A stretch of 64,000 nucleotides of DNA from Escherichia coli (GTDB lineage Bacteria > Pseudomonadota > Gammaproteobacteria > Enterobacterales > Enterobacteriaceae), in NCBI RefSeq assembly GCF_003334815.1, contig NZ_QOWO01000005.1; one strand, written 5' to 3'. Position numbers and translations under genes: made by a program. Below, in pieces: positions 54,757-54,935 of the stretch (position 1 is the first letter of the stretch; each line of letters starts with the position of its first letter). The notes under the pieces are model-generated. The model saw only the letters and a list, made by a program, of their open reading frames with translations. It made no database searches and was not told the origin of the DNA.

Positions 54757-54799
54757 TCCCTACTCCACTCCTGCTATGCTTAAGAAATTATTCATAGAC

Positions 54800-54925
54800 T
54801 CTAAATAATTCGAGTTGCAGGAAGGCGGCAAACGAGTGAAGCCCCAGGAGCTTACATAAGTAAGTGACTGGGGTGAACGAATGCAGCCGCAGCACATGCA
54901 ACTTGAAGTATGACGAGTATAGCAG
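54800..54925. repeat. ERIC (enterobacterial repetitive intergenic consensus / IRU) element, approximate bounds
   Basis: Core gtgaagccccaggagcttacataagtaagtgactggggtgaacgaatgcagcc matches the regions targeted by the standard ERIC primers (ATGTAAGCTCCTGGGGATTCAC and AAGTAAGTGACTGGGGTGAGCG) with a few mismatches; flanked by inverted copies cactcctgctat / atagcaggagtg. Confidence 0.8.
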
Positions 54926-54935
54926 GAGTGGCAGC

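Follow-up and report, generated by a model that had tools for sequence, protein, structure and literature searches.

An ERIC element between dxs and yajO of Escherichia coli, very probably inserted into a predicted host hairpin that holds the yajO Shine-Dalgarno sequence

The ERIC elements of the Enterobacteriaceae, also named IRU and RU-1, are reportedly the subject of work by Sharples and Lloyd in 1990, Hulton and colleagues in 1991 and Wilson and Sharp in 2006. The copies in E. coli K-12 have long been catalogued, and such variation in presence and absence is the basis of ERIC-PCR. We took the features of the family from the Delihas reviews and from paralog alignment; one review gives, in its Table 1, terminal inverted repeats, flanking 5′-TA-3′ and duplication of a TA target (Delihas, 2007). 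The copy between dxs and yajO resembles the family in its 127-bp length, its central inverted repeat, its long imperfect palindrome and its ends of the TATACTC/GAGTATA type with TA; it is likewise intergenic and co-transcribed, one of several copies per genome, present in some genomes and absent from others, and known in a long variant with ~78 bp more at a fixed internal site. It differs by one substitution in the left repeat (TAGACTC) and by the TG of its empty sites, and in nothing essential. Of the ERIC/IRU features open to test, all are found apart from a clean TA duplication, and the element is an ordinary member of a long-known family, of a kind already known.

Three other systems are close. 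The ERICs of Yersinia modulate mRNA stability, according to the summary of De Gregorio et al. (2005) given in PMC2229807. Like the ERICs covered by that summary, the dxs-yajO copy is co-transcribed between two genes of one transcription unit; unlike them, it is nested in a host hairpin predicted to sequester a Shine-Dalgarno sequence (SD), and the 3′ end mapped beside it suggests a protected message. The ERIC family is absent from Rfam. The nearest model there is RF02818 (V_AS5, Vibrio RNA AS5), which aligns with 54794-54917 over model positions 1-129 (E = 2e-9), reflecting an ERIC-like repeat shared with vibrios; the score of 52.5 bits compares with a gathering score of 96, making the element a non-member by the Rfam criterion, and the dxs-yajO ERIC has no match at an Rfam gathering threshold. 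Finally, MITE and IS elements can form hybrid promoters, for example the outward or junction promoters of the Neisseria Correia/NEMIS elements. Here too a -10 at the element end (TATACT) is joined to an upstream host TG motif, but the candidate dxs-yajO promoter would direct transcription inwards through the element and antisense to the host operon, and its activity we infer from its position relative to ChIP, dsRNA and 3′-end data only.

The element and its limits

The window is the whole 64-kb stretch of E. coli DNA analysed here, and positions refer to it unless otherwise stated. An sraA sRNA at 34255-34350 (plus strand) and the SRP RNA ffs at 16519-16615 (minus strand) reach their Rfam gathering thresholds, and fit the region at ~0.42-0.48 Mb of an E. 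coli K-12-type chromosome. The dxs-yajO spacer occupies 54757-54935, 179 nt from the dxs stop codon to the yajO ATG. In the MEP isoprenoid pathway flux is controlled at the dxs step, which YajO is able to bypass. The genes and the element are placed as follows.

52894-54756, plus strand: dxs coding sequence, with which the RefSeq annotation of identical E. coli genomes agrees
54795-54921, plus strand: ERIC/IRU element, 127 bp including the terminal TA at both ends, delimited by paralog alignment and the empty allele
54836-54879, plus strand: central core of the ERIC, an inverted repeat with the ERIC1R and ERIC2 primer sites, from consensus match
54924-54928, plus strand: yajO SD, AGGAG, 7 nt upstream of the ATG at 54936
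54936-54938, plus strand: yajO start codon ATG, from RefSeq annotation

A GTG-start open reading frame at 54864-55910, by which yajO would reach into the ERIC, was discarded because RefSeq and all 80 orthologues begin at the ATG at 54936, with its own SD. Directly after the yajO stop codon lies a REP-like palindrome, GGCCTGATGAGACGTGACAAGCGTCACATCAGGC, at 55919-55953, which has a weak Rfam match to naRNA4 (E = 0.7).

An earlier note had recognised an ERIC core in the spacer, and this identification is borne out. The core consensus, a 44-mer that takes in the two ERIC-PCR primer sites, agrees with 54836-54879 at 42 of 44 positions; none of 100 shuffles produced a match. We fetched the ERIC copies of the ybhJ-ybhI and pgk-fbaA spacers and aligned them with the window to set the limits; they are 92-95% identical to the dxs-yajO copy over 123-126 of 126 nt, a good full-length alignment where a poor one would have spoken against the note. 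Homology to the paralogs opens with TA(T/G)ACTCTAAAT and closes with GACGAGTATA, the ends being TAGACTC on the left (consensus TATACTC) and GAGTATA on the right. The empty allele is 125 bp shorter and gives the same limits. Megablast with the element as sole query finds a median of 5 places per E. coli genome, and scans with the core consensus and with Rfam find no second copy in the 64-kb window. The RNA fold, which the note had proposed as a check, agrees as well: the ERIC by itself is predicted to form a long imperfect hairpin at -56 kcal/mol (z = -8.9), a stability reached by 0 of 200 shuffles. All RNA structures given here are thermodynamic predictions.

The host hairpin and the insertion site

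The note had also described short inverted repeats flanking the core. These repeats are real, but they belong to a hairpin of the host and are not the ERIC termini; they are host sequence because they are present also in genomes without the ERIC. The conserved hairpin, as modelled, has the yajO SD in its 3′ arm and an anti-SD sequence in its 5′ arm.

54763-54781, plus strand: 5′ arm of the host hairpin, anti-SD, CUCCACUCCUGCUAUGCUU, paired with 54915-54934 in the minimum free energy fold
54915-54934, plus strand: 3′ arm of the hairpin, of which 54922-54934 is host sequence with the SD and 54915-54921 is the right end of the ERIC
54795-54796, either strand: left TA of the putative target-site duplication, from the empty allele and paralog alignment
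54920-54921, either strand: right TA of the putative duplication, polymorphic at 54921

The empty allele, which reads ...CCACTCCTGCTATGCTTAAGAAATTATTCATGGCAGGAGTGGCAGCATG, is predicted to form a 14-bp hairpin with the yajO SD AGGAG inside the 3′ arm. In the filled allele the right end of the ERIC, GAGTATA, would re-pair with TATGCTT and replace the original top of the stem, so that predicted stem length is 14 bp empty vs about 17-19 bp filled. The whole filled spacer folds at a predicted -81 kcal/mol (z = -8.4) as a hairpin of about 190 nt. As long as the 5′ arm is present, the SD is predicted to be paired with a probability of 1.0, whether the allele is empty, filled or long.

A species survey with YajO as query, taking one genome per species, gave 80 Enterobacteriaceae loci. 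In all 80 dxs lies directly upstream of yajO, and all 80 spacers are predicted to fold the SD/anti-SD hairpin; 75 of them, at 54-75 nt, are in the empty state. We examined covariation by aligning the two arms with the loop removed, which left 63 distinct sequences. Standard pairing is found in more than 90% of species at 11 core stem pairs. Covariation is seen at the base of the stem, in pair 6:33 (CG in 40 sequences, UA in 10 and UG in 8) and pair 8:31 (GC in 26, GU in 25, AU in 7 and UA in 2). It scores 0.123 vs 0.084 for shuffles, 0 of 500 of which reach the observed value, and 79% of cells are paired in the real structure vs at most 53% in slid controls. The upper stem is uninformative on structure either way because it is invariant.

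The ERIC interrupts the top of the hairpin 3′ arm, with CAT to its left and GGCAGG to its right. The K-12 allele has TA at both ends of the ERIC; extant empty sites in E. coli read TTCATGGCAGG, with TG and not TA as the target, and for this reason the TA duplication is not clean at the E. coli locus. Citrobacter sp. MGH106 has TA at the position equivalent to the E. coli target. Taken together, the spacer very probably contains one full-length ERIC/IRU inserted at TA near the top of a pre-existing host SD/anti-SD hairpin.

Alleles in E. coli and related species

An 801-nt query spanning the spacer matched 5426 of 5426 complete E. coli genomes, about half of them 125 bp shorter. Alleles were counted with 50-nt queries taking 25 nt from each side of a junction, so that matching one half only is not enough to pass the E-value limit. 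The variable presence of the ERIC from strain to strain, expected by the earlier note, is evident: the filled junctions were found in 2844 genomes on the left and 2844 on the right (52%) and the empty junction in 2581 (48%), filled and empty together accounting for 5425 of the 5426. O157:H7, LF82, UTI89 and ST131 strains are empty, and K-12, HB101, UMNK88, E24377A and O111:H8 are filled. A simple phylogroup split, with A and B1 filled and the rest empty, was rejected because strain 042, which we take to be of phylogroup D, and E. albertii are filled and E. whittamii is empty.

Filled alleles vary at the right junction. At base 54921 the K-12 type has A, and about 1155 filled genomes have G. 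The exact K-12 right junction, TATAGCAGG, occurs in 1283 genomes and TATGGCAGG in 1155, the remaining filled genomes having other right junctions such as TATAGCGGG. As shares of E. coli genomes, the exact K-12 junction makes up ~24%, the ERIC with another junction, presumably a weaker candidate promoter, ~29%, and the site without ERIC 48%. Some ~120-137 E. coli genomes, strain 042 and GPEC1354 among them, have a long variant in which GGGGTGAACGA is followed by 78 extra bp. The 78-bp insert also occurs, at the same internal site and 92-95% identical, in the ERICs at yeiS-preT, upstream of gyrA and at yehK, though only 649 of 5426 genomes have any copy of it.

In E. albertii a long ERIC is found at the same site, with the copy-specific substitutions kept (TAGA..., GGCGGCAAAC, GAAGCCCC, GTGAACGA). 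As E. albertii and E. coli share these substitutions, theirs is the same insertion event, either inherited or passed by recombination. The site is empty in E. whittamii. A diverged ERIC-family element occupies the equivalent TA in Phytobacter diazotrophicus, P. ursingii and Kosakonia sp. S29; its orientation matches that of the E. coli copy, and comparison with the empty site of P. massiliensis shows a clean TA duplication. ERIC-family elements thus entered the equivalent TA independently in another lineage, that of Phytobacter and Kosakonia. The metagenome-assembled genome UBA3516 has an internally deleted element remnant of ~30 bp.

Transcripts, candidate promoters and rival readings

The ERIC is extragenic and lies in a transcribed region, being covered by published RNA 3′ ends and dsRNA reads. 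Adams et al. (2021) give coordinates on NC_000913.3, where sense RNA of the spacer is on the minus strand. Their data include a strong sense RNA 3′ end at 438,135 (window 54936), flagged Rho-dependent, which falls 2 nt past the hairpin base, and a Rho termination region at 438,058 (window 55013), inside yajO; a fusion with the yajO 5′ UTR and ORF rose more than 2-fold in rhoR66S (Adams et al., 2021). The 3′ ends of RNA antisense to dxs were mapped to 438,373 and 438,376 on the plus strand, which are 54698 and 54695 on the minus strand of the window (Adams et al., 2021). Huang et al. (2020) captured with p19 an RNase III dsRNA cluster, S-43, at U00096.2 437,393-437,579; this is window 54716-54902, a conversion that we checked against their own gene table. 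S-43 is the fourth strongest p19 cluster among the listed clusters overlapping coding genes, and was attributed to an unannotated antisense RNA starting downstream of dxs, the ERIC being unmentioned (Huang et al., 2020). A ChIP-seq peak of the sigmaS holoenzyme at 437,329-437,469 was assigned to yajO by its authors (Peano et al., 2015). It corresponds to window 54826-54966 if the coordinates are those of U00096.2, a version that is unstated there and that we infer.

A hairpin reported as lying "5′ of yajO" (Gordon et al., 2017) was set aside as a misprint for yajQ, and gives no evidence on dxs-yajO, because the RNase III site of these authors, 444,573, falls in the panE-yajQ spacer. In that spacer, at 48466-48513, we observed a perfect 18-bp inverted repeat with a 12-nt loop (TATCCCTTAATTGTGCAT / ATGCACAATTAAGGGATA), which coincides with the cleavage site.

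Two candidate -10 sequences lie in the arms of the hairpin.

54773-54783, plus strand: GCTATGCTTAA, matching the sigmaS -10 consensus at 11/11 positions, with T54772 and G54773 fitting an extended -10
54916-54924, minus strand: TGCTATACT, candidate extended -10 with C at -13, formed by host TGC and ERIC TATACT

The sigmaS consensus is KCTAYRCTTAA in the form in which Weber et al. (2005) are quoted in PMC5650638. The window has 2 exact matches to it vs 0.12 expected. The second, GCTACGCTTAA, is at 4290-4300 on the plus strand. The exact 11-mer GCTATGCTTAA recurs in 68 of the 80 species spacers, the near-invariant GCTCCTGCTATGCTTAA of the hairpin contains the 11/11 match, and conservation of the 5′ arm and the first part of the loop goes far beyond the needs of pairing. 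For transcripts starting about 7 nt past the motif, the predicted SD pairing is 0.07-0.5 in the empty and 0.34-0.77 in the filled allele, vs 1.0 with the arm. From these sequence patterns we tentatively take GCTATGCTTAA as a candidate sigmaS-type promoter of yajO, leaning slightly towards doubt; its transcript, lacking the anti-SD arm, would permit translation of yajO. The ChIP peak of the sigmaS holoenzyme, at 54826-54966 given U00096.2 coordinates, lies nearby. Against such an embedded promoter, the yajO 5′ UTR cloned by Adams et al. (2021) already begins ahead of the motif, at 54764, so that the yajO transcript on record holds the whole hairpin and lends the embedded promoter no direct support.

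Where the host arm meets the right end of the ERIC, the minus strand reads CTCCTGCTATACT, a mirror image of the plus-strand CTCCTGCTATGCT. The same position is TGCCATGAA in the empty allele and TGCCATACT in filled alleles of the G type. TGCTATACT falls inside the ChIP peak of the sigmaS holoenzyme, given U00096.2 coordinates. The predicted start at ~54909-54911 is 7-9 nt outside the S-43 edge at 54902, with the -10 hexamer 14 nt outside, and an RNA running from this start to the antisense 3′ ends of Adams et al. (2021) would measure ~215 nt. What ties TGCTATACT to the published antisense RNA is its position. We judge the chances evenly balanced that the K-12-type TGCTATACT drives this RNA and that its duplex with dxs-yajO mRNA yields S-43; the insertion of the ERIC may have created, or at least strengthened, an antisense promoter in K-12-type strains. 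A scan of the spacer for consensus promoters reported neither the GCTATGCTTAA nor the minus-strand TGCTATACT -10, because neither has a -35. The sole call of that scan in the spacer was a promoter-like hybrid, TTAAGA (host)-18-AATAAT (left end of the ERIC), at 54780-54809 on the plus strand, with 9 of 12 positions matching; the site exists only in ERIC-filled alleles.

For the sense transcript we propose a model that we regard as somewhat probable. The ERIC would fold on itself into a closed extension of the host stem, and because it would act in this way the sequestration of the SD would be kept. On mRNA reading through from dxs the hairpin would block the yajO SD, leaving yajO poorly translated; the untranslated yajO leader would lead to Rho termination inside yajO, and the dxs message would be trimmed back to the base of the composite hairpin, made of the host stem and the stacked ERIC rod.

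That the spacer might hold no mobile repeat at all, and be instead an intrinsic terminator of dxs or a REP/BIME palindrome, is a reading to which we give practically no credence. A stable palindrome after a gene would suit it, but a terminator scan finds none in 54757-54935, where the stem is followed by CAGCATGCAATAC with no T-run; the spacer has no REP consensus, the REP-like palindrome lying instead at 55919-55953; and full-length ERIC homology is demonstrated, all of which led us to exclude both a terminator and a REP element. A switch of the Yersinia type, in which the co-transcribed ERIC would expose an RNase E site and destabilise the dxs message in an orientation-dependent manner, is reportedly the proposal of De Gregorio et al. 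(2005), and is an analogy drawn from general knowledge of the family as summarised by Delihas and from the co-transcription of this ERIC downstream of dxs. We consider it quite improbable, the strong and stable sense 3′ end of K-12 at the hairpin base suggesting protection and not destabilisation. Nor is it at all probable that S-43 comes from the intramolecular hairpin of ERIC and host in the dxs-yajO mRNA and not from a sense/antisense duplex. The composite hairpin, ~190 nt with a predicted -81 kcal/mol (z = -8.4), is very stable and is overlapped by the cluster, but imperfect stem-loops escape p19 capture (Huang et al., 2020) and the ERIC arms are imperfect; moreover, the cluster runs 41 nt into dxs, past the hairpin, antisense RNA over dxs has independently mapped 3′ ends and high read counts, and the highly expressed pgk-fbaA ERIC locus is absent from the top clusters listed.

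A weightier alternative, which falls short of an even chance and yet has to be taken seriously, is that the ERIC is genuine and a neutral passenger of no regulatory consequence, the antisense RNA and the dsRNA arising from promoters unrelated to it. The element would then have survived only since a self-folding insert in the loop leaves the host structure undisturbed. This would accord with the 48% of E. coli genomes that do well without the ERIC and with the equal sequestration of the SD predicted for filled, empty and long alleles, and in both alleles the minus strand of the host loop contains AATAAT, which resembles a -10. S-43, however, reaches 54902 and takes in nearly all of the ERIC, and p19 requires perfect duplexes; the antisense RNA must therefore start at or to the right of ~54902, within or past the right end of the ERIC, and not in the host loop. 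The peak of the sigmaS holoenzyme likewise spans the right junction and not the host loop.

If the embedded promoter and the junction promoter are both taken as active, the hairpin could be a switch with two purposes: read-through mRNA would silence yajO, the transcript from yajO's own sigmaS promoter would be translated, and the ERIC would have added the mirror antisense promoter. CTCCTGCTATGCT on the plus strand and CTCCTGCTATACT on the minus strand would form a convergent promoter pair ~130 bp apart, and the antisense product would give rise to one of the strongest RNase III dsRNA clusters of the cell. As a whole we think this combined reading unlikely.

As an ERIC copy the element is routine; what is added here is its exact frequency in the population, its host-hairpin context and a candidate link from the ERIC to an antisense RNA and dsRNA hotspot. 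The published locus of a "new antisense RNA" coincides with the ERIC, which gives a concrete candidate for the origin of that RNA. A conserved SD-sequestering hairpin with a sigmaS-like motif would account for the reported Rho termination of yajO. The RNA between dxs and yajO differs between laboratory K-12 and B strains, which are filled, and many pathogenic lineages, among them O157:H7, UTI89, LF82 and ST131, which are empty. If the two-purpose switch were true, a MITE would have rewired how dxs and yajO are controlled after transcription, with an outcome that depends on the strain.
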